Of a stretch of 64,000 nucleotides of DNA, positions 3,423 through 48,469 are shown piece by piece. Numbering within the stretch: position 1 is the stretch's first letter; every line of letters begins with the position of its first letter. This stretch comes from a virus. Lineage: Duplodnaviria; Caudoviricetes. The notes beneath the pieces were generated by a model. It was not told where the DNA came from. It saw only the letters and a program-made list of their open reading frames with translations, and searched no databases. Location: positions 47,500 through 111,499 of IMG/VR virus record IMGVR_UViG_3300028797_000007; one strand, given 5' to 3'. Position numbers and translations under genes: made by a program.

Positions 3423-3424
3423 AT

Positions 3425-4447: not shown

Positions 4448-4743
4448 TAATCAACCACCACCTTAATTACATAATCTTCTGGACGAATCTGCATTTTTTT
4501 TAATTGGTAATAATTAAAATATCTTTTATCTCCTACTGGTTGATATTGACCTGGTCGTTTACCATTCATATATTCTTCAGATTTTTTAACAGATTTAACG
4601 TTTATCGCCTCTTCATAATAATTCATTGGATTGGCTCCATACGGTAATTCATATTCATATAATATACCATTGGCCCCCAATCTTCTAACACTTAATGTTC
4701 TATCTATTTTAGCATTTCAATCATTTATAGTTCATTTACCCAT
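4447..4743 (-). CDS. Hypothetical protein (98 aa with TGA=Trp)
   Basis: ATG GGT AAA TGA ACT ATA AAT GAT TGA AAT... is in frame with the listed ORF 4447-4680. Confidence 0.7.
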
Positions 4744-4744
4744 A

Positions 4745-5578: not shown

Positions 5579-5731
5579 ATCATCGTCCCTCCTCTAAAAT
5601 TATAGTAGTAGAAAAGTTCCTTTTCTTCACTTTCCATTCTACTAACACTATATTATCATAAAATAGTACTTTTGTCAAGTAAAAATTGCAAAAAAAATAA
5701 GAGAGAAGATTTCTCTTCTCTCTAGTTATTA

Positions 5732-6706
5732 TTACATACTAGCTGGGTCAACTGGGTCGTAGTTTTCATCTAATGGATAAACTTTTCCAGTGTCAGTTAA
5801 ATGTCCATCAACAGAGTCAACTGTAACTTCTTTAGCTGGTACACGTTTAAATGAACCATCATATTGTCCGTAAGTTTCGTCTCCAGATTTTCCTTCTTGA
5901 CGTAATTGTCTGAATTTAATCATTTGTCCTTCGTCATCTCTTAAAGCTTTTCCTTTGAATGAGAATACTACAGCTTCTGTAGCAGCATTTAAGTTAAATG
6001 AGAATGAACTGTCAAGTTTTAATTTAGGAATTTCAATTTGGAAGATGTCATTTAATCCAGTATATTGGTTAAATAATAATGTATCACCAATAAATTTGTA
6101 TGTTCCAGCAAATTTATCAGCTAAAACTGTGATTTCAGTTAATTCTTCAGTTTTTGTTGGGAATCCCATTTCATATTCATAGAATACTCTGAAAGTAGCA
6201 TCTCCAACGATGCTGTCTTCTTTGTAGTTATGGAAATCACTAAATGAAATAGTATCAGTTTCTTCTTCTAGAGCATTTTCAGTTCTAGTAGCAGTTGATA
6301 AAATACCATTTATCATTTCAGCAATATAAACATAAGAACCTTTACGAGCTTTTCTACCTAATACGATAGTTTGTGCACCATCAGCTACGTGTACTAATTC
6401 ACTTTCCATCATAACGATTTTTTCTTCATTAGTACCTTCTCTTAATTCACCACCAGTTAATACTGCTAATGAACTCATAGTCATAATAGCGTCATCAAAT
6501 TGAACATTGATAGCTTTAGAGTGAGATACAGAAGCTAATGTTGGGTTACCTTTACCACCTTGGATATCAGTAACTTCAGCAGTACCTTCAAGAGTAGTAA
6601 CTTTTAATGTATCGAAATACATTACTGGATATTTAGTAACTAAATCGTATAATGTAACATCACAAACAGTAACTGAAGCATATTTTCTTCCTTGAATATC
6701 TAACAT
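5732..6706 (-). CDS. Major tail protein
   Basis: 324 aa, GGAGG RBS, high-expression codon bias, GGKGNPTL motif. Terminator hairpin at ~5700-5722. Confidence 0.7.
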   Translation of the reverse strand: MLDIQGRKYASVTVCDVTLYDLVTKYPVMYFDTLKVTTLEGTAEVTDIQGGKGNPTLASVSHSKAINVQFDDAIMTMSSLAVLTGGELREGTNEEKIVMMESELVHVADGAQTIVLGRKARKGSYVYIAEMINGILSTATRTENALEEETDTISFSDFHNYKEDSIVGDATFRVFYEYEMGFPTKTEELTEITVLADKFAGTYKFIGDTLLFNQYTGLNDIFQIEIPKLKLDSSFSFNLNAATEAVVFSFKGKALRDDEGQMIKFRQLRQEGKSGDETYGQYDGSFKRVPAKEVTVDSVDGHLTDTGKVYPLDENYDPVDPASM

Positions 6707-6729
6707 CTTATATACCTCCTAAGTTATTG

Positions 6730-7461
6730 TTAATCTAGCCAAAATTTATTAGTATCTTGGCCATCTTCAGAACTTATGTATGGACTTAATTGAGTCCTTA
6801 ATTCAAAAGATTGAATATCTACATATTTCTGTAGGAGCATATTAAATTGTAGCATGGTCATATTATACACTTGCTCAAATGTATAGCCTCCGACAGCAAC
6901 CAAGCCTAGAATCTTATTACCTAAATAATCTTCAGGTTTTTTATTAGGATTCTTTGTTTCTTCTATTTTCTGCTCGCTCATTTTCATCTTGCGAATCATT
7001 TCGCGCTCGCGCTCAGACATATGTTCATTTTCATGATATTGTCCGCCTTCTTCTGAAGCACTTGAATCAGGCAATGAACGTTCACATATCTCTTTCATAA
7101 GAAAATAGAAAGTATTGTCTAGAATTATTCCAGACTCCCTCTCCCCTATATATATAGTGCCACTAACATCAAAAAACTCTACTTTTGACTTTAAAAAAGT
7201 TTCACATGATAATTTTAATTGTTTTTTTAATATAGGACTTGACATAATATAAAGTTTTCATACTTCATAATCATCTAAGGTCTTACTCATATCTGTTTCT
7301 TGATTAATTATATCGCTTCTTTTTAGAAGTCATAAATTAATCAATGCCCAATATGTGTATTCCCCCATATCCACAATTTCTTGCAATGTGGGTTGATAAT
7401 AATATATATCTTGTGTAATTAGTATTGGTTTACCACTTAAAACTTTTGCTAAACTAATCAT
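6730..7461 (-). CDS. Hypothetical virion/tail protein (243 aa with TGA=Trp)
   Basis: ATG at 7461 overlaps the end of the previous gene. Two in-frame TGAs precede the listed ORF 6730-7245. Confidence 0.7.
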
Positions 7462-7951
7462 CTATTACAGCTTCATATATCATTCTATATCCTAGTAAAA
7501 TGTCTGATAATTGAGCATTTACTATACTAACACAACGATATTTTACTCCTCCAGTTTGAGTTAATTCATATTTCATTAAATTACTAATTACATGAGCTAT
7601 ATTTAAAGGTCTAATACCTTCATTTATAATCCATTGATTTCCTGGAGTAAAAATATCTATTGCTATACTTGGATGAAGGGTATCTGTTTTTGCAGATTCC
7701 TCAGCTGATATCAAAGATATAACAACTATACTTCCTTCATCTTCATCAAAAGGTAGAAGAGGCACTCTTGATATTTGAGTATCTCTTAAATCTTTTGTAA
7801 CGTCTTCTTTTCTTTCTAAAGGTTTTTTATCAGTATATACCAATAATTTCTTTAATTCTTGGCAATTATTAAATACTGTAATCATACGATAGATATCATT
7901 ATTGACATCTAAGAAGCTATCTGTTTCCATGACGTTCTTATTTAATATCAT
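7454..7951 (-). CDS. Putative tail completion/terminator protein
   Basis: 165 aa, located between head-tail genes and the major tail gene. Confidence 0.5.
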   Translation of the reverse strand: MILNKNVMETDSFLDVNNDIYRMITVFNNCQELKKLLVYTDKKPLERKEDVTKDLRDTQISRVPLLPFDEDEGSIVVISLISAEESAKTDTLHPSIAIDIFTPGNQWIINEGIRPLNIAHVISNLMKYELTQTGGVKYRCVSIVNAQLSDILLGYRMIYEAVIDD

Positions 7952-7960
7952 AAGTACCTC

Positions 7961-9166
7961 CTATACTGTTCTTATATAAACTGTCTTTTCAATTATTCCT
8001 TGAGGAGTTTCTGCCGTAATAACAAAAGTACCCGAATACTTATCTTTAATACTAATAGTAACATTAGTATCTGTAATATCGATAGTTTTTCTTATCTTAG
8101 AGAATGTCTCTACACCAAATACGGCTGCACTTCCATCTGATAATTGATAAGTTTGTGATGTATTCCATTCAATATAATCATCACCAGTTATATATAATTT
8201 AATTTCTTGTTGAGTATGTTCTCCTGATACTTCTATAGGAATATTTATAAAAATTGTTTCATTACGAGCTAGGGCAACTGTTATAATAGCAGTTCCTAAT
8301 CCTCTACCTATCAATCTTCCTCCATCTACTTGGATTATATTTTCATCAGAAGATGATAAAATTACGTCTTCTTCTACTTCTATTCCATCTTTTAATACTA
8401 ATACAGGTAATTCCATAACATCTCCTGCATATAGTTTTGTATCATCAGTTAATTTATTCTTAATTACATATTCATATACATCATCATATGCTATTCCATT
8501 TACTATATCATCAGTATCTAATAATTTATCATCAACAAATGATAAAATAGATACATTATCAATAGAAACATTATCCACATTTGTAACTCTATAAGCTTGT
8601 CCATTTATAATGAATCTCATTTCTGGATGTAACTCTAAATTTTGTTGAGTAGCAGCCATCATATTCCAATCAGTATCATGTAAAATAATGTTATCAAATT
8701 TTCTATTTACATCAGGAGTGACTCCTAAAGCATTTGTAATACGACCAGAACGGATATAAGCTGGTTGAATATGTAATTCTCTTGTATCTTTATCTATCCA
8801 TTTTAAATAACCTGTACAACGGTAAGCGATTCCATTGAAGCCAGGTTGGTCAGGACGAAACATCTTTTTAAGTAATATCCAATCGTTATCGTCCCATTTG
8901 AATAATACTCCTTTCTCTAAACCAACTTCTAACGGAGCAATAACATTTGCTGCTTCATATTCTTGAGTTGTTTTAGTAGAAAGAATTGCCACTTCGTGGT
9001 CTTTATAAGTTTTATCATTTTTATTATAAACAGAAATGGTAAAACCATATTGGCTATCTTCTATTAATGAACTAATACTTTCTTTTACTTTAGTTTTAAC
9101 GTATTCTCTCTTAGTGTTCCCTTTAAAATGAACTCTATCCTTGTATTCCTCGTAAAGAGTCAACAT
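7961..9166 (-). CDS. Head-tail joining/neck protein with C-terminal Ig-like domain
   Basis: 401 aa. SSSDENIIQVDG..GLGTAIITV resembles a Big_2 domain. Confidence 0.55.
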   Translation of the reverse strand: MLTLYEEYKDRVHFKGNTKREYVKTKVKESISSLIEDSQYGFTISVYNKNDKTYKDHEVAILSTKTTQEYEAANVIAPLEVGLEKGVLFKWDDNDWILLKKMFRPDQPGFNGIAYRCTGYLKWIDKDTRELHIQPAYIRSGRITNALGVTPDVNRKFDNIILHDTDWNMMAATQQNLELHPEMRFIINGQAYRVTNVDNVSIDNVSILSFVDDKLLDTDDIVNGIAYDDVYEYVIKNKLTDDTKLYAGDVMELPVLVLKDGIEVEEDVILSSSDENIIQVDGGRLIGRGLGTAIITVALARNETIFINIPIEVSGEHTQQEIKLYITGDDYIEWNTSQTYQLSDGSAAVFGVETFSKIRKTIDITDTNVTISIKDKYSGTFVITAETPQGIIEKTVYIRTV

Positions 9167-9395
9167 AATTAATTACCTCAAATATAGTTTGTCTAAAATT
9201 AGTGTAATCTATATATTTTAAAGTTATAATCTTTAAAACTATAGTTCCTTTTACGTCTTCAGGCATAAAAGTATTAAAAGTAATTTCGCTTAATAATTCA
9301 TCATATATAGTATGCCAATGTTTGCCTTCTTCTCTCCAACATAACATTTTATATAGGCTTGAAATGATATGTTTATAGATAACACTTGTATCCAT
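9135..9395 (-). CDS. Hypothetical protein
   Basis: 86 aa with RBS, inside the operon. Confidence 0.7.
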   Translation of the reverse strand: MDTSVIYKHIISSLYKMLCWREEGKHWHTIYDELLSEITFNTFMPEDVKGTIVLKIITLKYIDYTNFRQTIFEVINYVDSLRGIQG

Positions 9396-9413
9396 ATGCT
9401 TCCCTCCTAATTA

Positions 9414-9944
9414 TTAGTCTCTGTTATTTGGAATAGGGTCATTATCGTCCCCATTATGAATTGTTGGTCCTGGTTGATAATCCTGATTATTAGGATATTT
9501 TTCTAGACCACCAAAATTTCCAACAATACTTACTCTTTTATAAGTATATTCATGTAATGCTTTACGCATATCAGCTAAGTATTGTTGATATAAAACTGTT
9601 AAATTTCTCAAATTTTCATTTGGTGAATAAGTTTTAATACCCGCATCATAATATTGTTGTTCAATTTTTCTACTACTGTTTATATAACGTTCTAACCATA
9701 CAGGTTTCATACAAATGGCTAAAACCTCTATCTCATCATCAGTTAAAGTCTCGTAAAATACATGTGCTCTTTCATCTCTCTTTCTTAAATTATGTTCTGA
9801 AATACGAGCAAAAGAATTAATAGCACTTAATAAAACAGGATAAAGTGCTATGTGCAATTTATCCTCGTCTAATGATGCCAAATACTCGTCTTCTATTTTA
9901 GCTAGAAAACGCATATATACATCATAATATTCTGTTATTTTCAT
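9414..9944 (-). CDS. Putative head-tail adaptor
   Basis: 176 aa, downstream of the capsid gene. Confidence 0.5.
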   Translation of the reverse strand: MKITEYYDVYMRFLAKIEDEYLASLDEDKLHIALYPVLLSAINSFARISEHNLRKRDERAHVFYETLTDDEIEVLAICMKPVWLERYINSSRKIEQQYYDAGIKTYSPNENLRNLTVLYQQYLADMRKALHEYTYKRVSIVGNFGGLEKYPNNQDYQPGPTIHNGDDNDPIPNNRD

Positions 9945-10360
9945 TATTTTGTTTTCTTAGATGATGTTTTCTTTGTAGTAGTTGTTTTTTTAGTTGCAGT
10001 CTTTGCGGCAGGAGCTACAGCCTTAGGTTCTTCAATAGTGATAATTTCTTCTTCTTCAGGTTCTTCTTCAATTTCTTCTGTTATTACAACAGCTGAGTAA
10101 TCTTCTCCTAAAAATTTAGCGATTTCTTCTTCAGTTAAACCCATTTCATATAGTTTATTTGCATCTATATTACTAATTCTAATCATTCCTTCATTAAAAA
10201 TAATTTTGCTAGCAGGATAATCTAAAATATCTTGTAAACTTGTCTCACTAATTCTAATTCTTCCCCCAAGACCAAAACGATAAGTTCTGTTTTGTGTGTC
10301 TTTTAAACCTACAGGTTGTCCTGAAATGTTTTCTAAAACAACTGTTCTCTCATTATTCAT
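9944..10360 (-). CDS. Hypothetical protein, acidic then Lys/Thr-rich tail
   Basis: 138 aa with GGAGG RBS. Confidence 0.7.
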   Translation of the reverse strand: MNNERTVVLENISGQPVGLKDTQNRTYRFGLGGRIRISETSLQDILDYPASKIIFNEGMIRISNIDANKLYEMGLTEEEIAKFLGEDYSAVVITEEIEEEPEEEEIITIEEPKAVAPAAKTATKKTTTTKKTSSKKTK

Positions 10361-10445
10361 TTGTCATTCCTCCTAAAAAATTGTAAAAAAATTAAAGAGA
10401 AGGGACTTTCGGAAAAGTCCGTTCTCGTTTTATTACTAAGAAATA

Positions 10446-11471
10446 TTACATAGATGGATTGTCATCTAATTCAGTATTTCTGTAGATACCCCAGTAGTTA
10501 TTAGCTACTACTGCTACGTCAAACATATGTTGAGCAGATACTTCGATAGAACCATCTTGTAATCTTTGTTCATCGATTAAAGTTCCACCTTCAATACCAA
10601 TCTTAACTGGTTTTTCTTTACCAGCTGGCATAATATATGCATATTGGTCATCAATAGCTTTGATAGTATTACCTTCATCTTCAAAAGATTGAGTTAATAA
10701 TACTACGTTAGTTCCTTTATAACGTCCAACATATCCTTGTTCTCTAACATCATCATAATCTCTTAATGATGTAACAGGATTAGCATCTCCAACCCATCCT
10801 GGTTGATTGAATAAGTATGAAGCGAATGCTTTAGTACAATAAATTGTAACACTGTCTCCATAAGCTTCTACAGTAGTGATAATTTTGTCGAATTCTTTTG
10901 CGTCAAATCCAGCAACTACAGCTTTGTTAGCAGCAGGTCTGTCTTCAGCGTTGATAGCAGCTTTTAAAGCTCCTTGAACTGTTTTATAGATACTGTCTGA
11001 TAATCCTTCGATTATGATATCCATTAATTCAGCCATATCAACACGTCCAGCTAAGAAATCTCCTAATTCTAAGATAGCTGCACCAGCGTATACTCTAGGA
11101 CTCATAGTGATGTCTCTAGTATCTACGTTGAATGTACGGTAAGTTCCGTATTCTCCAGCAACAGTAACGAATCTTTTACCACGTGTAACACCTGTTCTTT
11201 GTTTGAAAACTATTTTTTCTCCAACATTTACATGTTGTACTTCAGCGAATGAACCAAATTGAGCGATTACTTTTTTAGGAACAACAACGTTAGCGATTTC
11301 TTCGATTAATTGGAATAAAATATTTTTGTTAGCTCTATAATAACTATAGTTATTGAAAGCTTTTAATTCTTCTCTTAAAGTTTCGTTAACGTCAGCTAGA
11401 CTGTATTCTGCTGGAATGTTTTCTTTAGTAGCAGCAGCTACACCTAATTCAACTAATTTTTCTAATTCCAT
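10446..11471 (-). CDS. Major capsid protein
   Basis: 341 aa, strongest codon bias, follows the protease/scaffold and decoration genes. Terminator at ~10395-10430. Confidence 0.85.
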   Translation of the reverse strand: MELEKLVELGVAAATKENIPAEYSLADVNETLREELKAFNNYSYYRANKNILFQLIEEIANVVVPKKVIAQFGSFAEVQHVNVGEKIVFKQRTGVTRGKRFVTVAGEYGTYRTFNVDTRDITMSPRVYAGAAILELGDFLAGRVDMAELMDIIIEGLSDSIYKTVQGALKAAINAEDRPAANKAVVAGFDAKEFDKIITTVEAYGDSVTIYCTKAFASYLFNQPGWVGDANPVTSLRDYDDVREQGYVGRYKGTNVVLLTQSFEDEGNTIKAIDDQYAYIMPAGKEKPVKIGIEGGTLIDEQRLQDGSIEVSAQHMFDVAVVANNYWGIYRNTELDDNPSM

Positions 11472-11489
11472 AGTCTTGTCCCTCCTTTA

Positions 11490-11993
11490 TTATGCGATAA
11501 CTCTATAAGTAGCACCGATTGTACCAGCTGGTACTGTTTCTAATGCACTACTTTCTATAACCATGATTTTATGAGAACCGAAAGTGAAAGTTGTTCCTTT
11601 AGCTAATTTGCTAGTGATAATTCCTTTTCCAGCGTTAAAATCAAAGTTAGTAGTAAAGATATCTCCTATTGTTAATTTGTATAATCTTGGTAAATAAGCT
11701 TCACCAAAAATTTCGTAATCGTCGTTTACTTGGTAAATAAAGTTTTCCATTCCACTTTTTCCATCTTCGTATCTACGAGGATTAGAGAAATGTAAGTACA
11801 TAGCGTCAACACATTTATTAGCTGTATATGATTTAACAATTGTATTGTCTTCAGCATTTATGAAAACGATTGCACCATTTTCTAATGAGTATCCGTCAGC
11901 AGCGAATGCTTCTCCTAATTTGCATTGAGCTTCGATTTCACCAGTTTTTCTACTAGCTACTTTGTTTAACTCAGCAACTGCGTATTTTGCCAT
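11490..11993 (-). CDS. Putative capsid decoration/minor head protein
   Basis: 167 aa between scaffold and major capsid gene, high-expression codons. Confidence 0.55.
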   Translation of the reverse strand: MAKYAVAELNKVASRKTGEIEAQCKLGEAFAADGYSLENGAIVFINAEDNTIVKSYTANKCVDAMYLHFSNPRRYEDGKSGMENFIYQVNDDYEIFGEAYLPRLYKLTIGDIFTTNFDFNAGKGIITSKLAKGTTFTFGSHKIMVIESSALETVPAGTIGATYRVIA

Positions 11994-12011
11994 ATAAATG
12001 TACCTCCTTAA

Positions 12012-13319
12012 TTATTTATTTGCCTTGTGGCGTTTTACTAAATCCCAAGCACCATTTCCTAAACTATTGTCTGCAATATTAATATTTAGACTAAAGTTAG
12101 CATCAGTATCTGTAGATTCAGTTTCTTCAGCAGATAATTGTTCAACTAAAGCTTGACCTAGTTCATTCTTAATTTCGTCAAGTGAACGTTCATCTACTTC
12201 GTTTGTTAATTTTTCAATTAACTCATCGTTCTCTAACTTAGTAGAGAATTTGTTTATAATTTCTAATTTTTCTTTTTTTGTGTATTTATTTAATGAACTT
12301 AAAGCGTCATTAAGCTTGTTTTCTAATGATTCGTATTTTGCTTTATAATCAGCTAATTCTGCTTCTAAAGCTGAATAATCTTTTTCCTTATTGCAAGCAT
12401 TTTCGCATACACAAGGATTTTTACCGCATTCTGGACATTCTTCTTCGTCTTCTTCTTCATCTTCGTCTTCCTTAGATGCAAATTCAGATTCTTCAGTAAC
12501 GTCCTCTACAGTCTCTACAACTTCAGTTTCTTCAGCAGATTCTTCTTCAGCTTCAACCTCAACTTCTTCAGTTGATTCAGTTTCAGTTTCAACTTCAGTT
12601 TCTACTGTTTCAGTAGCTTCTACTTCTGTTTCAACAACTTCAGTAGCTTCTTCTTCAACTGGATTAGTAGTAACTTCTGGTTCTACAATTTCAGTAATAT
12701 CTTCCATAATATTTTTACCTCCTTCATTATTTTTCTGTGTGTTCTCAACAAACATGGCGTAAGCACTTACCATGTTACTAAATGCTGTAATGAATTGAGC
12801 ATCTTCAAAGCAAGGTTCTACATCATCACCTAAAACTGTAATACCTGCAAATTCTGCATAAGTTACCCTGTAATAAGTAATAGAGCCTCTTCTTTCAAAT
12901 GTTCCTTTCATTGTATTAGGATTTAATTCCATAGATAAATGTTTTTCATTCTTAAGAATGTCTTGAGCTTCTTCAAAACGTCCATCCCAAATAACAACAT
13001 CTACTTCTAGATATTCTTTATCAGAACCGTCTTGTTTAACTCAAACCGCATGTGGTTCTAGTGGAATAAAACCAAAAGCACTTGGATTACTCTCATGCCC
13101 TTCGAAATCGTTAGTCTCATAATTGAATGTTCCAATTACTGGAGTACCAGGAATTGTAGATGCTAATTGCTCAGCAACTTCACCTTCAATGATAGAACGG
13201 TTTCTATTTATTCCTTTGTAAAAAATACGAGCTCTTCCCATTGAGAATACACTATTGATTTTGTTAGGAGTACCTAATAAATCAACTGAAAAGGTTGCAT
13301 ACTTATGTAATTCATTCAT
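12012..13319 (-). CDS. Prohead protease/scaffold (435 aa with TGA=Trp)
   Basis: TGA at 13041 joins the two ORFs (HAV-W-VKQDG...VVIWDGRF...HLSMEL). Acidic coiled-coil C-terminus. Confidence 0.8.
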
Positions 13320-13331
13320 TGTAGCTCCCTC

Positions 13332-14921
13332 CTATAAACTCGCTTCCTTCGTTATAGTTGAATCTTTCTTCTCATTATCGTCCAATTCTGGGCGTCCATT
13401 CTTCTTGTCACTGGCTTCTTGTGCTTCAATGTTACCAGTTTTAGTTTGACCATTTGCTTTAATGTCGGATTTATTGCTCATGGTATGTGAACTTTGTAGG
13501 GGAACAAGTTTACTATCCAAGTCAAGAATGTCGTTCTCAAAAGCAGTAAGTGATTCTATATAACGTTGTTTAACTCCCAAAGCTACTTGAGGTACAATTT
13601 TGGAGAATCCATATTGAGCTCCTTCAAGATAACTTTTCATCATTTCCTCTCTATCCTTATAGGAAGTATCTAAAAATGAAAATACAAATTTGCTATTTTT
13701 TATGATTTTCTTTTGGCAAACTGCGCCTAAATAGAAATTAAACCAAATAGCAATTTGTTCACGAAGTTTCCACATGAATATAGCATCTCTACGTTGAGAC
13801 TCTTTCAATGTACCTGCTGATGTAGAATTAAATAATTCAGCAGATACCCCAGCATCATCGTAAAATTGGTCGTAATAAGTTTCCAAGAATTCATAATTTT
13901 TTGTAGCATCTCCTGTTTCACCTAACGATAAAACATCAATTTCTTTAGCCAATGTAGTAATAGCGTCAACATTATTCTTTTTAGCAGCAACGGCTTTTAA
14001 ATTCTTATGGAATTCAGCAGCTAACTCTAAATCTATTTCTGGGTTTCCTTCTTTGTCTATATCAATTAATTGAACTAATAATTTAGTTAAATTGGTAGAA
14101 ATATAATCATCTTTTAATGGTTCTAACATTTGTATACGAGCTATTTCTTTAATTAGAAAAGCAAAAGGTGGACGTCCATCTGATGTCGTAAATGCTATAC
14201 CATTTTCTACCGGTACAATAAACCATTGATTTATTGATTTACCATTTTTATATTCTTTATAAGCTGAACGAATTGCTTTAGGATATTGCTTTAATACTTC
14301 GTCCATTGTTAATAAATTATCTTTAGTCATTTCAGCCATAGCTACATCAATGAAAGTTAGGTCTACTGCAAATATATTAATTGATGGAGTTCCTGCAGTA
14401 CCAATTATTTTACAATAATCTGTAGGTAATTTTATCGTTTTAAAATACGAATTGGCCCCTTTTTTATATTCTTCATTATAATAATAAGTCTCACCTTCAA
14501 TTAACATATCTAATAAAGCATGACTAGTAAAGTTTTCTACTTCAATATCCTCATCTAATGTTCTTAAGGCTGCATTATAATCTTTCATTAACTTTTTCTT
14601 GTTTACTTTTTTATCGTCTAATATCGGAGATATAATATATGAATTATAATATATATAAGCAAAATATTCTAATAGTCTACGATATAATGGATGAGCAAAG
14701 TAAACTCTAGAAAATTTTCTTCAAGCTTTTACATCACTATAAGGTGTTTTTAAAACATCTTCTGGTTTAATAGGAATTTCCACTCTACGACCTTTAGTTA
14801 AAGCAGAGCCTTGAGGAATTTCTATAGTACCATTTTTAACAGCTGTACCCATTGCTTGAATAGATTTTCTAAATTCGGTTAAATATTCTTTTGTATAACT
14901 AGTAAATTTTTCTTTATCCAT
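13332..14921 (-). CDS. Portal protein (529 aa with TGA=Trp)
   Basis: TGA at 14721 is in frame with 13332-14588. Lies between terminase and protease. Confidence 0.8.
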
Positions 14922-14938
14922 TTGCTACTTTTCACCTC

Positions 14939-16696
14939 CTAATTTAAAAAACTATATTGACCTTTACTCCAATCTCGATTTTTCTTTTCTCTTTCTGTTT
15001 CTTCTACTTGATTTATATAATATAAACCATATACAAAAGCAGAAACCAAGTCTTTTCGAGTATGGCTATTGATACGAGTTAGCACTATAGTACTATTTGT
15101 ATCTAAATTGGCTTTTAAATTAGATAACTGGTCTTGTAACTTAGTCGTTTGAGCATATGGAATAAGTTTATTTGCTTGTTGAACTGGGTTCATCTTATTC
15201 CAAGTTTTATATTGACTGAAATATCTACGTGCTTGTCGTTCATTTAATAGTAGAGAAACACGTTTTAGACTCAAAATAATGTGAGCATTTGTATAAATTT
15301 CACTATTTAAGCCTCGATTTGCTTCAATTCCGAACAATTTTCGCACATTTTCACGTTTTTCTGTACTAGAATACTTAGTTTTATTTAAAAAACCATAAGG
15401 ACTATAATAAATACCGTTTAATTCTTGTTCATCAATCATATAATCGGCAAGTCCAGCACCATTACCATTAATATCCATTACGATTGCTTTAAAGTCAAAC
15501 TCTAAATCTAATTGTTTAAGCATTGCAGCCTGGTCTCTGAAGTGAGTCCCATTTAAAATCTTGATATTTACTAGGTGAATCTTATAACGTTCACCATCAG
15601 TATAAACCTTAAATACCATCGCAACAGTTTGGTCGCCTTCAAATCTTGCAACGTCGACAGCACATACATAAAAACCTTTAAAGTCTTTTTCTCTTTTAAA
15701 CTCAGGTCTTACAAGATTACGACATTTACTAATTTGAGTATAGGAATAATAACTATCTTCGCTACCGCCAGTCCATACAGACATATATTCACGTAAAAAT
15801 GATTCAAGCTTATATGAAGATGCCTGTAATTTATCTTTTACTTTATCTACAGATAATAATCCGTGCATTACAGGTATTCTATAATCTCCACCAAAACAAA
15901 ATGCTTTGTCTGGTTCTAATGCCATATCAACTAATGTCTCTAATGTTCTATCATGAGCATAGGTTCCTTTATACCCCGCTGTAGTAATCATAGTTTGTGC
16001 AGCATGTGGTTCTGTCGGATTTAATAATCCAGCAACAGTTCTACGGTCAACATTCATCAATGGAATGATTACTTCGTTAACTGCATCACCATCCATCATG
16101 GCAAACTCTTCAAGTGTACCCCAATGTCTACGACCACCACGTCCAGCGTTACCAGTATTAACGATATCTATTTGACTATCATTACGGAATTTAAGTTCAG
16201 CATAATCTGAACCCATATTACCATATTTCTTTTTCATCTTATCAATATCACTTATATTAAGTTCATTAACTAAAAAAGGAAATAAACGATAAATTTCATT
16301 AGTCTTTTCTTCTACGATTTGTGCCGCTTGCTTTTTTGTATCAGCACAAGTGAATCCTTTACTTCGCGGTTGCATAATTCCACGAATATTCATATCCAAG
16401 AAATCTAGAAATGACTTTGAATACGCACGAGGAAATGTTCCAGAAACCTCTCTAAAACGCATACATACTCTTAAAAATATTCTTTGATAAAAATATAATT
16501 TAAAGAATGAGTCAGCTGGAGTAATAACATCAATTAAATAATCAGGATATAAAGTAAATAATGTTACCATATCCTCGAATCATTCTCTATTATCTTCAAC
16601 ATACTGAGGTGTTATAACTATTTGCGCCATATCATTTCTTTCTTGGAAAGTATTATAATACTTGTCTAATATTTCGTCAATACTATTTGAATTCAT
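14939..16696 (-). CDS. terL: Terminase large subunit (585 aa with TGA=Trp)
   Basis: FPRAYSKS Walker A, TLEEFA Walker B, VDVAR nuclease motif. N-terminal extension through TGA at ~16580 to ATG 16696. Confidence 0.9.
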
Positions 16697-17678
16697 TTTC
16701 TACTTGTTGGAACATATTTTCTAATTCTAATTCATTCATAGGGTCTTCTAATTCCATACCTTCTTCTTCGGATTCTGAGTATAATTGTTCTATATCTTCA
16801 TCAGTTATATCTGTACCCGCCTCTGAATTTAGTGCTTTAGCATTATACATCTCATTAACAGTCTCGCTAGAGTCCGTAAATAATCTACGAACATATTGTT
16901 GCATATTTTCTATTGTTTTATCAACTATATCTCTATTTTCAGATATTTTGTAATTTAATAAAAAGCCTGTTTTTTCTAAATATGCGACTAATTCACTTAA
17001 ACTTTCTATTGTATTTTCATTAGAAGATGTTTGAGTACTTATACCCAACTCTTTCATAAGTGCATTATAACTTTGAAGAACTGTAGTAGCTTCTTTGTTA
17101 TCTCCATTTGCAATACAATGGTCTGATATAGCAGAGAGCTTAGCTAGTTTTCTTACCATATCTCTTCTAGCTTCATCTTTAAATGGATAATGACTTAATG
17201 TATGTCTTTCATATTCTTCCATTCTCATGTATTCTTCAAGAGTAAAACCATCTATGTGTCCTCATTTTTTTCTTAAGTACATAAGTAAATCTGAATGAAT
17301 AGCAGTTAATTCATCTAATACACTATTGTACTCTCTACATTTTTCCCACATCTTATTGTATTGAAACCAATTATTATCAGCATATTTACCATTAGTCATT
17401 TCCTGACAATAATCTATAAGTAATGGGCCTAACTTCTCATACTTCTTTTCCATTTCTATTCATTTATTAGCATCATATGGTAAATCTAGGAATTGACATA
17501 ACTTATCAATTGAAGCTAAATCTTTTCTATCTATTTTTTGAGCTATGCATTCAATACAAGTATAACTTATTCCTTTTATTCCATAAAGAGATGAATTAGA
17601 AGTTGGAAGATACATGTCCAGTTTCTGTTTTTTACCACATTCTGGACAAATTCTATATTGTTCATTCATAAAATCCAT
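16683..17678 (-). CDS. Zn-finger protein, terminase small subunit candidate (331 aa with TGA=Trp)
   Basis: Three listed ORFs joined by TGAs at 17460 and 17262. Two CxxC pairs. Directly upstream of terL. Confidence 0.65.
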
Positions 17679-17683
17679 TCCTC

Positions 17684-18847
17684 CTATAGTTTAGTTGCTT
17701 TCTTAGATGCTTTTCTCAATTCTCTCTCTTTTCTTCTCTCCTCTTTAGCCATTTTATTTTCATAAACGCAATCTTTACAAATTTCCTTAAATGTCCCATC
17801 TTGATATTTGCCAAAATTTAATTCATGTGCGTATAGTTGTCTTCCACATTGTGGACATATTTTCCATTTAGTCATGTTTTCTAATGTACCATTAGGTCTA
17901 TGTGTTCTTTCTTCCCATCATAAATATGCTTGCTTAGCAATTTGTTTTGTAATATGTTGTTTCCATATTGTGCTGATATAATTAACACTATATGTTTTAC
18001 CACCCATTTTTTCTAAATCACTAACAATTTGTTCATTTGGTACATGATTAATTTTTTCTTCTAAAATTAATTTATGTTCAGGTGAAAATCTAGTTCTTTC
18101 AATTAATTCATCTAAGAAATTATACATTTCTCACCATGGATGGAATGGATTATCTGTAGTCTTAGCTTTCATTCCTGAATAATATTTCAACATGGCATGT
18201 ATATGTTTCCAATTACCATAATCTACTTGCATCTCATAATCACATAAAACATGTGGTCCTATACACATTCCTATATAGTCTGGTTTTTCTGTATGAGAAG
18301 GAAGAACTCCAGTATTTCCTACTGGTGGTCTATAACTATCTTTAAGTAAGAATTGTTCTCTTCTTAAATCTATCATTCATTCTCTTAAAAAATATTTAGT
18401 TTGATATGTTGGAACTAATTTTCTATTAGGGTCCATATCTCTTTTACCTTCTAATACTTCACGACAATATTGATATTGCTCAGATATTAAATCTATAGCT
18501 TCCCATAAATCTTTCATAAAAGGTATATCTGCATCTTTTTCTCTATCTATTGTTGGTCTAGGAACTCTATATATTGATACTTCTTGACTTTTTTGTACAG
18601 TAGCTTCTCCTAATGCAGTTTCTATTAATGTCTCATAACTTACTTTCTTTTTACTCCCTTCTTTCAATTCTACTTCTGCATCTACATCTTCTGCATATAA
18701 AAGATAATTTGCTACTTTGTCTAATTCAGAAGGAGGACATAAAGATAATAATCCTTGCTCATCTAAAAAATTAACTAATCCTAATCTTTCTTGATAAGCT
18801 TGTAAGTTAAAGTCTAAATAACTTGCAATCTTCATTTTTACCTCCAT
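17684..18847 (-). CDS. Hypothetical protein with C-terminal Zn finger (387 aa with TGA=Trp)
   Basis: Four listed ORFs are in one frame, joined by TGAs at 18377, 18131 and 17918. Confidence 0.8.
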
Positions 18848-19084
18848 ATTTCATTTATCTATATGTATTATATCATGAATTTACTAGTTTGTCAATAGGA
18901 AAGTTAAATTTTTTTAATTTTTTTATCTTTACAAAAAATAATATAATATATATAATATAATTAATATAATTTATAAATATATTAGATAGTCGTCGACGGA
19001 GCCAAAAAATAAAAAAGTTTTAGTTTTAAGTTGACAAACGCTTTCATTGAATGATAAACTGTATTCAGAAAAGGAGAGAGACCC

Positions 19085-19543
19085 ATGAAAATAATGATTT
19101 CCACATTCCACAATATTAGAAACTTTACACCAAACATGATTCCGGTTAGTACGGCAATATGGGACCCTAAATGGTTTCATGACTTTAGTCACCCCACCCA
19201 TGTGTTCAAAGATAAAAAGGGTGTATACAATGGGTTAAGGTATTTAAGTCTTGCGCCAGGTCTTACTTGTGAAGGATTGTGTAGAGGTCCGGAAGATTGT
19301 GGCAATAAACCACCACATTGTCCTTTCCTTACAGCATATAGAAAACAATTGGATAATATAAACTTTACTACCATGGTTAATGAGTTAGAGGCCATGGGAA
19401 CTGCAATTAAAAAACATGAGGGGTTCAAGGAAGACCCAATAATAGTTTTACTAGTTTATGAGAAACCAGATAATCCATGTAGTGAACGCTGGCCATTAAA
19501 AGATTGGTTCACAGAGCATGGTTTAGAATTAGAGGAGGTATAA
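19085..19543 (+). CDS. DUF488-like protein
   Basis: IVLLVYEKPDNPCSER motif, with promoter and RBS upstream. Confidence 0.55.
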   Translation: MKIMISTFHNIRNFTPNMIPVSTAIWDPKWFHDFSHPTHVFKDKKGVYNGLRYLSLAPGLTCEGLCRGPEDCGNKPPHCPFLTAYRKQLDNINFTTMVNELEAMGTAIKKHEGFKEDPIIVLLVYEKPDNPCSERWPLKDWFTEHGLELEEV

Positions 19544-30810: not shown

Positions 30811-31415
30811 TTATGCTCTTTGAAAAATAAAAGTATATGGTAGTCTTCCTACTAAGGTATTACATAAGATGAACTTCAGTCACCAGAGAGTTAAATGCCT
30901 CATAAAGGAGCTACCTTTATTTCTACTTAACCCACACAAATGTGCCGGAGCTGGATGGGATTGGTACCCATTACTTTCACTTGTAATTTAGGCAATTTTG
31001 ATACCGCAATCAACGCCCTTGTCGCAGTCTTAAGCTACTCGCACTATCTTCCGTGTCTTATACCCATATTACTATGGTTCAGCTGCGACACTCGCTTATT
31101 GGTAATTCAGCTTCCCCTCTTGCCCACCACAGGCAGTGGTTCCACAGTCTCTCTCTTAAATATGGGGCTACCCATACCTAAGCCGTCAAGATGACGAGCG
31201 ACTGGAAGATATACTTTATCCACAATATATAATCCCCACAATCTACTTTCTTTTCAACCTATTAAAGTCGTCTTGTTATTTAGTTGCCTAAATAACCGTC
31301 TCCATCCATTGCTAAGTCTCCCAAGCAACTAAGAAGGGGCTGTAGATTTCCACCCCCTGACTACAATCAGGGTTTTTCAAGTGGTTCATACAATTTTATT
31401 TTTCAAAGAGCATAA
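30811..31415 (-). ncRNA. Large structured RNA ~600 nt (ROOL-like candidate)
   Basis: 22-bp terminal inverted repeat TTATGCTCTTTGAAAAATAAAA, GC-enriched, no credible ORF, next to the tRNA cluster. Family call is from size and context only. Confidence 0.55.
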
Positions 31416-35649: not shown

Positions 35650-35893
35650 ATATATAAAAACGGCATTTTGAATAGTAATATTGTATCTTAGGTCAAGTAG
35701 ATTTTCTCCGTGAATTACAGTCCGTTACCAGAGCTGCGCTTTCGCTTCAAAATTACGACATGGGGTCACCCCTCATATAACTTGATTACCACTTAGTATA
35801 CACTTTAATCTATCAAAATTAACGCTCCGGACTGTTTCAGTAGTTAGCTAAACCGAGTTTCCTCACCGGAATGACGCGCCGTTACTATCAAAA

Positions 35894-39458: not shown

Positions 39459-39534
39459 TGGTGGGAACACAGGGACTTGAACCCTGGACTCCAAAATTAA
39501 AAGTTTTGTACTCTACCTACTGAGTTATGTTCCC
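39459..39534 (-). tRNA. tRNA-Lys(TTT)
   Basis: Cloverleaf. Confidence 0.9.
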
Positions 39535-39897
39535 ATTTCTTAATTTTTCATGCTCCTCGGCATGACAATTACTACAAAGTAACTGGCATTTGTCTACTTC
39601 TTTTTCATAATCTTTCAAAGAATGAAAAGTAGCTGCTATACCAAATTCCTTATTTGAGTTTGGGTGATGAAAATGTAAGGCATCTATACATTTATTATAC
39701 CCACATATTTCACATTTACCCCCTTTATAATTTACAAGGTATTTTTTGATATTCCTGTGTTTAACATTCATGGCTCTTTGTTGCTGTTCTCTATTACCAA
39801 GTTCATATTGTGGTACACACTCAAAACAATATTTTCGTGTATGACCATATTTTATAGTTTCAAACTCATTGCCACAAAGTACACATATCTTTTTCAT
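39517..39897 (-). CDS. HNH endonuclease
   Basis: CEICG...LHFHH...LLCSNCH. The 3' end overlaps tRNA-Lys. Confidence 0.85.
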   Translation of the reverse strand: MKKICVLCGNEFETIKYGHTRKYCFECVPQYELGNREQQQRAMNVKHRNIKKYLVNYKGGKCEICGYNKCIDALHFHHPNSNKEFGIAATFHSLKDYEKEVDKCQLLCSNCHAEEHEKLRNGNITQ

Positions 39898-39918: not shown

Positions 39919-40014
39919 TGGCAGGGGCTATAGGATTCGAACCCATACCCCGGGCTTTGGAGACCCGTCTTTACGGTTTTGAAGACCGCTGTGCTACCAT
40001 TACACTAAGCCCCT
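39919..40014 (-). tRNA. tRNA-Trp/opal suppressor (TCA) with a second CCA anticodon arm
   Basis: AGGGGCT TA GTGT AATGGTA GCAC A GCGGT CTTCAAA ACCGT AAAGA CGGGT CTCCAAA GCCCG GGGT ATGGG TTCGAAT CCTAT AGCCCCT G CCA. Confidence 0.9.
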
Positions 40015-40022
40015 ATATAAAA

Positions 40023-40098
40023 TGGGGTAAGATAAGAGACTTGAACTCCTCCCTGCAGTGCCACAAACTGCCGTACTAACCTCTATACTAATCTCACC
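40023..40098 (-). tRNA. tRNA-His(GTG)
   Basis: G-1:C73, cloverleaf. Confidence 0.9.
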
Positions 40099-40131
40099 AT
40101 ATAAAATGGGGCCTAGAAGCCCCTTGTACAA

Positions 40132-40941
40132 CTAGTTACCTATTCCAAATAGAACATTTGAACTATCCCCCAACATAGTAGTAGGATATTTTCCGTCCCA
40201 TTTATTTATAAGTGCTTCTTTGATTTCTAATTCTTTTAACTTTAATGTTTTGTCAGTAATTTCTTTATTTTGTAATTTCATAACCTCAGCTTCAGCTTTA
40301 GCGTTTTCAACTTTCTTTTCGTTTTCAACTCTTGCTTTTTCTAACTCATATTGAGCCTTTTGAGCATTTTGTTGAGCGACTTGTTTTTGTTCTATTGCTT
40401 GATTATAAGCATCACTAAATGCTAAGTCTGTAATAGAAAGGTCTACAATAGTAAACCCCCTGTTTTGTAGTTTGTTAGTTAATGTTTCATACATTAAAGC
40501 TGATACTTCTTGTCTTTTAGTAATAAGTTCTTCAGCTGTATATTTAGCAGTAACTGATTTTATACTTTCTAATATAGCTGGGTTAACCACAACAGCTTCA
40601 TAATCTACACCTACAGTTTGATATAATTTATTAGCATAATCCTTGTTAACACTATAATTAACAGCAACTTTTAGATTAACATCTTGTAGGTCTTTAGAAG
40701 CTGCACCGTTATCAACTTCAACTTTTTTAGTTCTACAATCCATCAACACAATTTTTTCAATGTAAGGAATTTTAAAGTTAATACCTTCGTTTAGCATATC
40801 GCCTTGAACCTTACCAAATTGTGTCTTAACTCCTACATAACCTGTAGGGACTGATTTAAAACTAGCAAATAAAGTTATAATAACAAAAAGAATAATAGCA
40901 CCTATAATAGAATATTTAACCACCTTAGTTTCATCAACCAT
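40132..40941 (-). CDS. SPFH/Band 7 (prohibitin-like) protein
   Basis: N-terminal TM, VPTGYVGV...FGKV, AIEQKQVAQQ coiled coil, KWDGKYP. Confidence 0.9.
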   Translation of the reverse strand: MVDETKVVKYSIIGAIILFVIITLFASFKSVPTGYVGVKTQFGKVQGDMLNEGINFKIPYIEKIVLMDCRTKKVEVDNGAASKDLQDVNLKVAVNYSVNKDYANKLYQTVGVDYEAVVVNPAILESIKSVTAKYTAEELITKRQEVSALMYETLTNKLQNRGFTIVDLSITDLAFSDAYNQAIEQKQVAQQNAQKAQYELEKARVENEKKVENAKAEAEVMKLQNKEITDKTLKLKELEIKEALINKWDGKYPTTMLGDSSNVLFGIGN

Positions 40942-40980
40942 GGTTAACTCCTTCCTATATAAGATTATTATTATCAAAAA

Positions 40981-41071
40981 TGGCGCCTGCTATAGGACTC
41001 GAACCTATGCGTCGATTACTCGACCTAGCTGTTTAGTAGACAGCCCCCTTAACCAACTTGGGTAAACAGGC
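40981..41071 (-). tRNA. tRNA-Ser(ACT)
   Basis: Long variable arm, loop CTACTAA. Confidence 0.85.
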
Positions 41072-44389: not shown

Positions 44390-45059
44390 TTGACAAATGG
44401 TATTTAGAAATATTATAATAATAATGTAAAATGAATTTGACGATTATGTCGAGGAAATGCGATGTAACCGTTGTATAAAATGACAAAGTTTCAATTAAGG
44501 AGCTATAGGAATATTTTAGGACAAATGTATACAGCTCAAGGGCCGAGGTACTATGGAATAAAGGACGCCTTTAGAAGAATTTGAGAAATTAAAACATTTA
44601 GGTTTTTAGAAAAAAGTCGTCAGGTCTAATCAGCCTTAAACGATTTAAGGAGATTAACCAATAAACTTATTATGTATAAATGAATAATATGGTGTATATT
44701 TATAGTAATATAAATAAGGCATTTATATTCCCTGCGAAGTTAGTAGGGCACATTTCTGATAAAACATAACGCTTAATAAGTTTAAATAATCTAACGGGAG
44801 AAAGAAACTTCCAAGAAAAATATCACGCATTTAGTAGATATGTAAATTAAATATGGCCTGACATATTTAAAGGACATACCATCGGCTGTGAAACTTATGG
44901 CTTGCGTTTTGAGTTAAATTGAGACAGACTGTCTCGACTATAAGTGCCAGCTCGGTTGATAGTTTAATAGGAAAAACATTAATATGTAGGTTCGAATCCT
45001 ACTCATCCTAAATGTCTTTTTGTTTTAATAGGGAGACTTTAGTTTCCCCTTTTATTTAT

Positions 45060-45136
45060 GGCGGTGTAGCTCAGATGGCTAGAGCAGTGGATTCATACCC
45101 CACAGGTCATAGGTTCAAATCCTATCGCCGCTACCA
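45060..45136 (+). tRNA. tRNA-Met(CAT), elongator
   Basis: GGCGGTG acceptor, cloverleaf. Confidence 0.9.
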
Positions 45137-45641
45137 AATTTAGCTATATACACAGACGTGTGTGATATAAGGTTACAACTGGGACCAAACTACCAGTGAT
45201 GCCCTGATGCAGGCTAAATTGAATGCATCGGCCTATTATGGGGATGTTTCGGTTTCGACAGGAACTAACGAACACTCATGAAACAAGTCGCAGGTATGCG
45301 TTAAATCCAAACCTAAAAAAATAAATGGAAACATTTTTTCTAAAATCGCTAACAGAGTAAAATCTGTTTTCACTGCAAATGCAGTTGCTTTAGCATAGTC
45401 TAAGGCGTAGGCGACTTTCATATGAGTAGTCAGGAAGTGGACAGACAAAAATATGAATGTATTAACTTAGCAAGGTCCACCAATATTGAGATTTCCTAAA
45501 ACAATTTCTCTATTGATTTACTAAAAGTTTTAGGCTACCCCCAAGATTTGTTAATTGGGTAGGGTAAGTAGATAGAACGAAATTAACTAAGCTTGTAAGA
45601 AAGTAATGACTAGTAAATTGGTTTTTGGACACGAGTTCGAT

Positions 45642-46315
45642 TAACTATAGTCGACCTAATAAGTAATTATTAGTGGAAAAGTAAACTCAAGACGGTGAAG
45701 GCTAAGTCGTAAGATATGCTAACGCTGCGCTAAACCTATTGGAAACAATGGGGGAACGCCCAGAGACTCAGAGAACACCTAAGGATTTAATCTATGGTGT
45801 CGCTCGGATGGAAAAAACGATATTCAAAATCTCTTTTATGTGCTTTCATTTCATCGGTATATTTACCATTTCTTGGTGTTAAGTTATTATATTCATTAAC
45901 AAGAAGATTTGCTCGATATACTTTTGAAGGTTCAAGCATAAAAGGAAGCACTTTAGGTAAAAGATTTAAAACCTTATTACCAACTAAAGTCCAGTGCCAA
46001 CTTTGTTTATGATTTTCTTTGTAAACTTTGTTGGATACTATGGTTCCTCCAAAGTGAGATTTTAAATATTCTAAAAAAGAATAAGTTGTGCTAGTTACTG
46101 ACAATGTTGGATAACGGAATTCATTATAACTATGTATTTTAGTTAAGGTAATTGTCCCTTCTCCATCAATTATTCCAGCTGTGTAAGCATACATTATTTG
46201 ATTTTCCATAAATGTTTACCTCCTATATTTGGAATAGGGTTATATATCCCTCTATTCTAATAGTATATAGGATGAAGGAATAGTCCAAACTTTTATGAAA
46301 ATAGAAGATTATTTG
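45642..46315 (+). mobile_element. Group I intron in the tmRNA T-loop
   Basis: P1 TCGATT/AGTCGA with U:G, core R CAGAGACT and S ATAGTCC, terminal G. Removal restores ACGAG-TTCGATT-CTCGT. Confidence 0.88.
45787..46209 (-). CDS. LAGLIDADG homing endonuclease (single motif), antisense within the intron
   Basis: AYTAGIIDGEG motif, AGGAGGT RBS. Confidence 0.9.
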   Translation of the reverse strand: MENQIMYAYTAGIIDGEGTITLTKIHSYNEFRYPTLSVTSTTYSFLEYLKSHFGGTIVSNKVYKENHKQSWHWTLVGNKVLNLLPKVLPFMLEPSKVYRANLLVNEYNNLTPRNGKYTDEMKAHKRDFEYRFFHPSDTID

Positions 46316-47930: not shown

Positions 47931-48404
47931 ATGAAAAAAAGTAGAATAAGAGAATTAAGCGACCAAGATTTCTGTGCTTTAGTAGCATCTAGTTATTCAT
48001 ATAGTGATATCCTTAGGGCCTTAAAATTAGGGACAAAAGGAGGTTCATCTACGGATATACTTAAAGCTCGCATAAAAGAATTAGGATGTTCAATAGAGCA
48101 TTTTAATAGACGCAAGAGTGAAAATGTAAAAAATATAACTCAACCTTTAAGTACCATATTAGTAGAGAACTCGTCATATCATAACATTTCTCGTCTAAAA
48201 GAAAGACTTATTAGAGAAAAGAAATTAGAATATAAATGTGCTATATGTGGCAATCCTGGAACTTGGCAAGGTAAAAAGCTATGTTTACAATTAGACCATA
48301 TTAATGGTATTAATGATGACCATAGATTAAATAACCTAAGATTTTTATGTCCTAACTGTCATTCTCAAACAGATAATTACAGTGGGAAAAATAATAGGGG
48401 GTAG
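47931..48404 (+). CDS. HNH endonuclease
   Basis: CAICG...LDHING...NLRFLCPNCH. The 3' end overlaps tRNA-Trp(CCA). Confidence 0.9.
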   Translation: MKKSRIRELSDQDFCALVASSYSYSDILRALKLGTKGGSSTDILKARIKELGCSIEHFNRRKSENVKNITQPLSTILVENSSYHNISRLKERLIREKKLEYKCAICGNPGTWQGKKLCLQLDHINGINDDHRLNNLRFLCPNCHSQTDNYSGKNNRG

Positions 48405-48469
48405 GCGACGGTTGCCGACGAGTCTCCAAAACTTGTGTCGAGTGGGTTCAACTCCTACATCCCCTGCCA
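48396..48469 (+). tRNA. tRNA-Trp(CCA), atypical D arm
   Basis: AGGGGGT/ATCCCCT acceptor, loop CTCCAAA, G73. Confidence 0.8.

Follow-up and report, generated by a model that had tools for sequence, protein, structure and literature searches.

A phage tRNA(UCA) with a candidate mimic of the tryptophan anticodon loop in its variable arm

Codon reassignment is hindered mainly by aminoacyl-tRNA synthetases that recognize the anticodon, because a change of the anticodon usually destroys charging. The determinants on which bacterial TrpRS depends are C34, C35, A36, G73 and the acceptor stem, and since it needs CCA, a plain tRNA with a UCA anticodon is expected to be poorly charged in a host using genetic code 11. 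Ser- and Leu-type synthetases disregard the anticodon. EF-Tu and the ribosome accept class II tRNAs and tRNA-Sec with their variable-region hairpin, which serves as an identity element for the synthetase; tRNA-Sec is characterized by a 13-bp acceptor/T branch (8/5) and by a 6-bp D stem with a 4-nt loop. Phage tRNAs, for their part, counter anticodon nucleases.

Among phages with altered codes, recoding of TAG to Gln is established (PMC9523058; Borges et al. preprint, 10.1101/2021.08.26.457843), and in a TGA-to-Trp case the charging problem is solved by a dedicated phage TrpRS, AP1 (Seki et al., 10.1101/2025.10.30.685624). Hairpins carrying an anticodon loop are read by synthetases in the E. 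coli thrS mRNA operator and in viral tRNA-like structures, and swapping the triplet of the thrS operator switches the enzyme that is bound (PMC9976931). Allo-tRNAs and selC* were found via tRNA-Sec searches, and the acceptor/T branch of allo-tRNAs is 8/4 or 9/3 (PMC5389517).

Anatomy of the tRNA(UCA) and the genetic code of its phage

The window analyzed here is a 64-kb stretch corresponding to bases 47500-111499 of a 111,499-bp IMG/VR record, which has direct terminal repeats and is estimated to be complete; the GC content of the phage is 32%. ARAGORN predicted 26 tRNA genes in the window, including a 96-nt tRNA with anticodon UCA (Table 1) whose 'SeC' tag is due solely to its long arm. The Rfam tRNA model (RF00005) matched it over the full model length with 61.2 bits, against a cut-off of 29, and was the only Rfam match at the locus, with no intron match. 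In the Infernal alignment to this model, the first hairpin (arm 1, with UCA) occupies the canonical anticodon position, and a 23-nt insertion is placed in the variable region. An intron is made less likely by the nature of the insert, a hairpin of 17 nt whose loop is conserved (arm 2, with CCA). Arm 2 is a variable arm rather than a second anticodon arm: of the 'two anticodon arms in tandem' of an earlier sequence-only reading, the two hairpins stand and the tandem anticodon arm does not. Its account of the hairpins, of A1-U72, of G73 and of the arm sequences agrees in every detail with the sequence, ARAGORN and Rfam.

The two loops differ at one base, and both contain U33 and A36-A37-A38. As the sequence-only reading had pointed out, without arm 1 and its linker (22 nt) the remaining 74 nt would form a cloverleaf like that of tRNA-Trp(CCA), in which the variable loop has 4 nt. 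The acceptor stem and G73 match in full the identity set of B. subtilis tRNA-Trp, namely G73, A1-U72, G2-C71, G3-C70, G4-C69 and G5-C68 (PMC9976931). In place of the C34-C35-A36 of bacterial tRNA-Trp, the decoding loop has UCA, and CCA occurs only in the loop of the variable arm. The minimum free energy fold of the 96-nt RNA was not a cloverleaf (z = -1.07), a result of little weight for one tRNA sequence.

Table 1. Features of the two-arm tRNA and of its surroundings, in window coordinates.
Feature	Position	Strand	Basis
Putative opal-suppressor tRNA-Trp(UCA), whole, 96 nt	39919-40014	-	ARAGORN, Rfam, sequence
Encoded CCA end	39919-39921	-	sequence
G73	39922	-	sequence
Acceptor stem AGGGGCU/AGCCCCU, A1-U72	within 39919-40014	-	sequence
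D arm GUGU-AAUGGUA-GCAC, 4-bp stem, 7-nt loop		-	sequence
Arm 1, decoding anticodon arm GCGGU-CUUCAAA-ACCGU	39973-39989	-	canonical position in Infernal alignment
Anticodon UCA of arm 1	39980-39982	-	sequence
5' linker AAAGA, arm 1 to arm 2	39968-39972	-	sequence
Arm 2, variable-arm hairpin CGGGU-CUCCAAA-GCCCG, 5 bp/7 nt	39951-39967	-	sequence
CCA triplet in arm-2 loop	39958-39960	-	sequence
3' linker GGGU, arm 2 to T stem	39947-39950	-	sequence
T arm AUGGG-UUCGAAU-CCUAU	39930-39946	-	sequence, Infernal alignment
tRNA-His(GUG), 8 nt upstream of the two-arm tRNA	40023-40097	-	ARAGORN
Terminator-like hairpin	40108-40123	-	
SPFH/Band-7 gene	40132-40977	-	
126-aa ORF between the two-arm tRNA and tRNA-Lys	39517-39897	-	
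Ordinary tRNA-Trp(CCA), separate gene	48396-48469	+	ARAGORN
TGA-recoded gene block, window part (genome 47.5-67 kb)	1-19455	-	ORF merging under TGA=sense
Tail tape-measure-like ORF with in-frame TGA	ending at 2821	-	ORF merging
ORFs with in-frame TGA	12012-13331, 13332-14924, 17684-18880	-	ORF merging

Reading TGA as sense merged 27 pairs or sets of long ORFs, compared with 4 for TAG and 11 for TAA. The merged ORFs comprise a DnaE-type Pol III alpha subunit (1,283 aa, 3 TGA), RecJ, tail proteins and a tape-measure-like protein. Between 1 and 67 kb of the genome, 63 in-frame TGA codons were counted against 200 TGG, about one quarter of the tryptophans of the phage being written as UGA, and genome-wide TGA is almost never used to end an ORF. 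The meaning of the codon was examined in a codon-by-codon alignment of 12 DnaE orthologues of related phages (54-91% identity). The ten columns with any TGA contained as other codons TGG 86 times, ATG 11 times, TTT three times and ATT once (n=101), and no Ser codon among the 12 orthologues. Since these columns are filled mostly by TGG, TGA in this phage is to be read, on comparative grounds, as Trp and not as Ser, Cys or Sec. Close orthologues were used instead of the solved Pol III alpha structures, in a comparison with which the TGA positions fell in non-conserved columns. Pfam gave mostly no match for the recoded ORFs within the window, apart from a PhageMin_Tail match within the recoded block. 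Replication genes (DnaE, RecJ) and tail genes are both present in the recoded half of the genome, and recoding here is therefore not limited to late genes.

The tRNA array is located in the genome half that is poor in TGA codons. The tRNA(UCA) is the single one in a complete genome with direct terminal repeats, and so the sole UGA reader; UGG is already served by the separate tRNA-Trp(CCA). No gene of the TrpRS/TyrRS family was found in the phage genome by a search that was positive in 14 of 14 control genomes, and the suppressor would therefore have to be charged by the TrpRS of the host.

On the minus strand, the order of genes is SPFH/Band-7 gene, hairpin, tRNA-His, two-arm tRNA, 126-aa ORF, tRNA-Lys and tRNA-Ser. 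The 126-aa ORF resembles, at the DNA level, HNH endonuclease genes of jumbo phages, and had no match in Pfam. Other features were observed in and around the array. A full-length ROOL RNA (RF03087, 186.8 bits) adjoins it at 30820-31408 (-). A match to OLE RNA (RF01071) of 155 nt at 35665-35819 (-), covering model positions 437-594 (the 3' part) with 102.5 bits, sits between tRNA-Phe and tRNA-Glu, an unexpected find in a phage tRNA array. A tmRNA at 45248-45643 (+) scored 47.6 bits, barely above the cut-off, and just upstream of it a 58-nt truncated tRNA-like match (44953-45010, +) lies beside tRNA-Met (45060-45136). A tRNA-Ser(ACU) is found at 40981-41071 (-).

Conservation and origin of the variable-arm loop

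We scanned IMG/VR with the pattern CTTCAAA-N(25-45)-GGTTCGAATCC, which requires an anticodon loop of UCA type and, a long spacer further on, a T loop, and which is blind to arm 2. From independent contigs of IMG/VR the scan returned tRNA(UCA) sequences with long arms, 25 of them distinct and with at least two body types, and UCCAA was present in the loop of the variable-region hairpin in all 25; the sequences being related to one another, these counts are not counts of independent events. The arm-2 loop is mostly of 7 nt, with the form C/G-U-CCA-A-A. In an alignment of 24 sequences, U54, C55, C56, A57 and A58, all of arm 2, were the sole columns to be invariant without having been fixed by the pattern. 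With arm 2 added to the cloverleaf as a fifth helix, 94.6% of the cells pair, versus 67.9% after shuffling and 35-46% when the partners are slid, and in the same 24 sequences each of the five arm-2 pairs has changed on both sides, giving stems as different as CGGGU/GCCCG, CACAG/CUGUG, GGCCG/CGGCC and ACUGG/CCAGU. In controls pooled over all loci, UCCAA was found in none of 250 variable arms of Ser, Leu and Tyr tRNAs, in none of 33 CUA tRNAs and in none of 45 UAU tRNAs, compared with 23 of 25 UCA tRNAs, both exceptions being genuine bacterial tRNA-Sec from the genome scan.

Two body types can be told apart. Type A, which includes the window tRNA, has a tRNA-Trp-like D arm and linkers of 3-6 nt (5') and 2-4 nt (3') around arm 2. 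In type B (L006, L020, L104, L114, L089) the D arm resembles that of class II tRNAs, the stem of arm 2 is 6-7 bp long, and only 0-1 nt precede and 1-2 nt follow the arm. Over the whole two-arm family the 5' linker ranges from 0 to 9 nt, and because linker lengths vary between subgroups the orientation of arm 2 is not fixed. G73 is nearly universal in the tRNA(UCA) set, and A1-U72 or G1-U72 is the rule. Beside the two genuine tRNA-Sec and one 3' half, the scan of cellular genomes (120 stretches) gave a single intact two-arm tRNA, which lies on a MAG contig of 6.6 kb.

Two further observations came from these scans. A 301-kb contig of a Clostridia MAG from sheep rumen (L320) carries at about 2146-2197 the 3' half of a two-arm tRNA, in which the end of arm 1 is followed by arm 2, containing CUCCAAA, by the T arm and by the 3' strand of the acceptor stem, CCA included, and the 5' half is missing; it may be the remnant of an integration site, and thus a hint to the host. 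In addition, a recurrent tRNA-like gene with class-II-like ends was seen in L008, L014, L022, L058, L081 and relatives; its odd middle includes CTTCAAA followed by GTGTACATA, and it receives no normal ARAGORN call, bar one 94-nt 'Glu'.

The origin of the two arms can be approached through phages that carry both kinds of tRNA-Trp gene. In phage G011, an ordinary tRNA-Trp(CCA) follows the two-arm tRNA at a distance of 4 nt, and its anticodon stem, GCGGU/ACCGU, is identical to the arm-1 stem. Over seven loci with both genes, mismatches to the anticodon stem of the resident tRNA-Trp(CCA) amounted to 15 for arm 1 and 31 for arm 2. Being nearer to the resident stems, arm 1 is thus taken as the original: judged from these stems, it derives from the former anticodon arm by a C34-to-U change, and arm 2 was added.

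For the distribution of the gene among related phages, we relied on the pattern search instead of the covariance model R1, which matched every tRNA of the relatives. The CUUCAAA loop followed by a T loop was absent from five complete close relatives, whose DnaE is 54-85% identical and free of TGA; one of these, G002, checked over its whole genome and not recoded, has tRNA-Trp(CCA) only, no tRNA(UCA), and a background level of ORF merging. The two-arm tRNA is present in the recoded relative G007 (DnaE 85% identical, with 8 TGA) and in G011, which is TGA-recoded at 55-95 kb, so that its presence tracks recoding. In G007 it stands directly after tRNA-His, syntenic with the order in the window, and its acceptor, D and arm-2 (UAAGGU/ACCUUA) stems are unlike those of the window tRNA, the two loops being identical. 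The DnaE of G011 is only 43% identical to that of the window phage, and the two-arm tRNAs of these phages differ at 3 of 96 positions, two of which form a compensatory pair of the T stem; it is the most conserved of the tRNAs that they have in common (median identity about 0.78). Such near identity beside so divergent a DnaE suggests that the gene has been exchanged between phage lineages as a recoding module.

The sequence-only reading had proposed conservation of both loops in related tRNAs as a check on its view; the arm-2 loop is conserved in the blind scan, and both loops are in G007. It had also argued against a recent duplication or an assembly echo, and the 25 distinct sequences, with UCCAA invariant on a covarying stem, bear this out.

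Cognate triplets in other long-armed tRNAs, and the competing explanations

In order to look at amber suppressors, CTCTAAA was substituted for CTTCAAA in the pattern, and 33 distinct long-armed tRNA(CUA) genes were obtained. The variable-arm loop contained CUG or UUG, usually followed by A, in 31 of these, a mimic of the Gln anticodon loop; the typical loop reads YU-CUG-AR and is borne on short covarying stems. A scan for tRNA-Ile(UAU), again blind to the arm, gave 33 distinct long-armed genes, which have A73. A 7-nt loop with GAU, of the form N-A/U-GAU-N-N, was found in 30 of the 33 (31 when an alternative hairpin is allowed). In the UCA, CUA and UAU sets, the copied triplet is in every case that of the amino acid which the discriminator base leads one to expect. 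The long-armed cognate tRNAs for Trp (CCA), Asn, Met, His and Lys contained no copy of their own anticodon. Six long-armed tRNA(UUA) were also found, with class-II-like bodies and no common loop motif, a result that is neutral for the idea of a mimic because Ser- and Leu-type enzymes ignore the anticodon. From these comparisons, the mimic loop is found in the variable arm exactly where the decoding anticodon is one that the synthetase should refuse.

Some individual tRNAs deserve mention. L528 (IMGVR_UViG_3300021091_000193) has a long-armed tRNA(UAU) with A73 and the arm loop U-G-GAC-G-A, thus a Val-type triplet; if the arm sets identity, this phage might read AUA as Val. Long-armed Asn, Met, His, Lys, Thr, Pro and Trp(CCA) tRNAs without an anticodon copy occur in L002, L024, L196, L239 and others, and one tRNA(CAU) of L002 has CAUAA in its arm loop. 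The tRNA-Ile(UAU) of the window phage (38510-38586, -) is of normal length (77 nt) and without the GAU mimic.

We propose that the two hairpins of the tRNA(UCA) share the work, one providing decoding and the other identity. Arm 1, in the normal anticodon position, would decode UGA at the ribosome, the loop of arm 2 would present C34-C35-A36, U33 and A37-A38 to the host TrpRS, and the acceptor stem with G73 would supply the remaining Trp identity. We assign a probability of roughly 0.7 to this reading, that is, to a UGA-to-Trp suppressor in which arm 2 mimics the cognate anticodon loop and supplies the identity for TrpRS. The sequence-only reading had already suggested that the UCA arm decodes TGA and that the CCA arm recruits the host TrpRS; this fits all the comparative evidence, with support from the Trp meaning of TGA, the lack of a phage TrpRS, the invariant CCA loop and the Gln and Ile mimics. 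The physical recognition of arm 2 by TrpRS, and its geometry, we infer. The variable arm exits the tRNA core far from the true anticodon site, and the anticodon-binding domain would therefore need an unusual binding mode. Moreover, TrpRS, GlnRS (or GluRS/GatCAB) and IleRS approach the tRNA from different sides, so that a single geometric solution is not obvious. That phages have a general and modular 'second anticodon', in which the arm sets the amino acid (CCA for Trp, CUG/UUG for Gln, GAU for Ile), is a wider proposal that we hold with somewhat less confidence, while still favoring it.

The same architecture could belong to a two-state tRNA, in which refolding or removal of arm 1 toggles between a UGA suppressor and a UGG reader, for example for the timing of late genes, as the sequence-only reading had also considered. 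We judge this improbable. In the window subgroup, the near-canonical 74-nt Trp(CCA) cloverleaf left by the 22-nt deletion speaks for it, and linkers of 4-6 and 3-4 nt would permit an alternative junction there, but the linkers of type B (0-1/1-2 nt) and the 2-nt 3' linker of L076 give no usable variable loop. Furthermore, the phage already has an ordinary tRNA-Trp(CCA), arm 1 is by its match to resident stems the homologue of the ancestral anticodon arm, an intron signature is absent with Rfam finding a tRNA alone, and the Ile(UAU) tRNAs of the same design are unrelated to stop codons. Excision to a UGG reader was rejected on the type B linkers, the resident tRNA-Trp(CCA) and the ancestry of arm 1. 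No better chance is given to the possibility that arm 2 serves another partner, whether as a decoy or shield for anticodon nucleases (also raised by the sequence-only reading), as a recruiter of a MiaA-like modification enzyme or as a T-box ligand. A decoy leaves unexplained why the mimic is restricted to tRNAs with a deviant anticodon (UCA, CUA, UAU) and is missing from long-armed Trp(CCA), Asn, Met, His and Lys tRNAs, and the constant agreement of the copied triplet with the discriminator base is predicted by an identity element and not by a decoy; these points outweigh, in our view, the MiaA-type context of U33 and A36-A37-A38 in both loops and the role of phage tRNAs against anticodon nucleases.

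A purely structural arm of class II type, selected for stability or for competition with RF2 and with its loop kept by descent or tertiary contacts, is rated slightly lower again. Mimic-free long arms on other phage tRNAs at the same loci, and the long-armed UUA tRNAs without a common loop motif, are compatible with such an arm, but it does not account for the complete turnover of the stem against the invariant UCCAA, for the finding that each of three unrelated tRNA classes has its own cognate triplet as nucleotides 3-5 of a 7-nt loop, or for the 0 of 250 among Ser, Leu and Tyr variable arms. Much less credible is a tRNA-Sec or a Ser-accepting class II suppressor, with TGA as Sec or Ser, in spite of the UCA anticodon, the long variable arm and a G73 that is common to tRNA-Sec and tRNA-Ser. 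The 7/5 acceptor/T branch and the D arm with a 4-bp stem and a 7-nt loop are unlike tRNA-Sec, the codons aligned with TGA are TGG for the most part and none is a Ser or Cys codon, the 63 in-frame TGAs are scattered over ordinary phage genes, and the genuine bacterial tRNA-Sec recovered by the same pattern lack UCCAA. Both candidates were rejected, tRNA-Sec on its branch, D arm and the Trp meaning of TGA, and the Ser-inserting suppressor, which would suit the arm and G73, on TGA columns that are never Ser. Least credible of all is that the architecture is an artefact of assembly or that the anticodon arm has recently been duplicated in tandem: the loops differ at only one base, yet 25 distinct sequences from independent metagenomes have different compensated stems and a relative has a syntenic copy. 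The artefact was rejected on this conservation of the architecture across contigs.

Implications and comparison with known systems

If the tRNA(UCA) works as we propose, it would account for the recoding of UGA, and apparently of UAG and AUA, by phages that have no synthetase of their own in standard-code hosts; it would also be a new kind of identity element for tRNA biology, would make the amino acid of a suppressor readable from its sequence, and would offer a ready design for engineered orthogonal or suppressor tRNAs. Should the wider proposal of a second anticodon be true, the true anticodon arm would be free to read any codon, and reassignment in a standard-code host would take one portable tRNA gene and no new synthetase.

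In the full-text literature, with most subscription journals outside its scope, and including Mukai 2017, Krahn 2020, Giege and Eriani 2023, Seki 2025 and a 2026 PNAS paper on anticodon-like triplets, we found no tRNA described as having an anticodon-like loop in its variable arm; the remark of the sequence-only reading, that it knew of no tRNA of this architecture, is in line with this. The evidence from sequence comparison points to a phage-encoded suppressor tRNA whose identity element is of a new type. Class II tRNAs (Ser, Leu, bacterial Tyr) and tRNA-Sec likewise have a tolerated variable-region hairpin that is used by the synthetase, but there the size and orientation of the arm matter and not an anticodon-like loop, whereas the window tRNA has a Trp-type body and acceptor and, as the TGA columns suggest, Trp as its amino acid. 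The TGA-to-Trp recoded phages of Borges et al. (10.1101/2021.08.26.457843) and of Seki et al. (10.1101/2025.10.30.685624) resemble the window phage in having a phage tRNA(UCA), in-frame TGA read as Trp and a presumed standard-code host. The Seki and Borges texts make no mention of a long variable arm or of an anticodon-like second loop, and the window phage differs from the Seki phage in that it has no TrpRS of its own and a spare CCA loop instead.

The thrS operator and the viral mimics regulate translation or tag genomes, whereas the mimic proposed here would lie inside a tRNA, beside a different decoding anticodon. Allo-tRNAs and the selC* tRNA-Cys(UCA) are also unusual and long-armed, some of them with UCA, and in selC*, too, the identity problem that comes with a UCA anticodon is solved (Mukai et al., 2017; PMC5389517). 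The window tRNA differs from the allo-tRNAs in its acceptor/T branch, which is 7/5 and neither 8/4 nor 9/3, and in that the missing anticodon determinant would be provided in cis, by the loop of its own variable arm.
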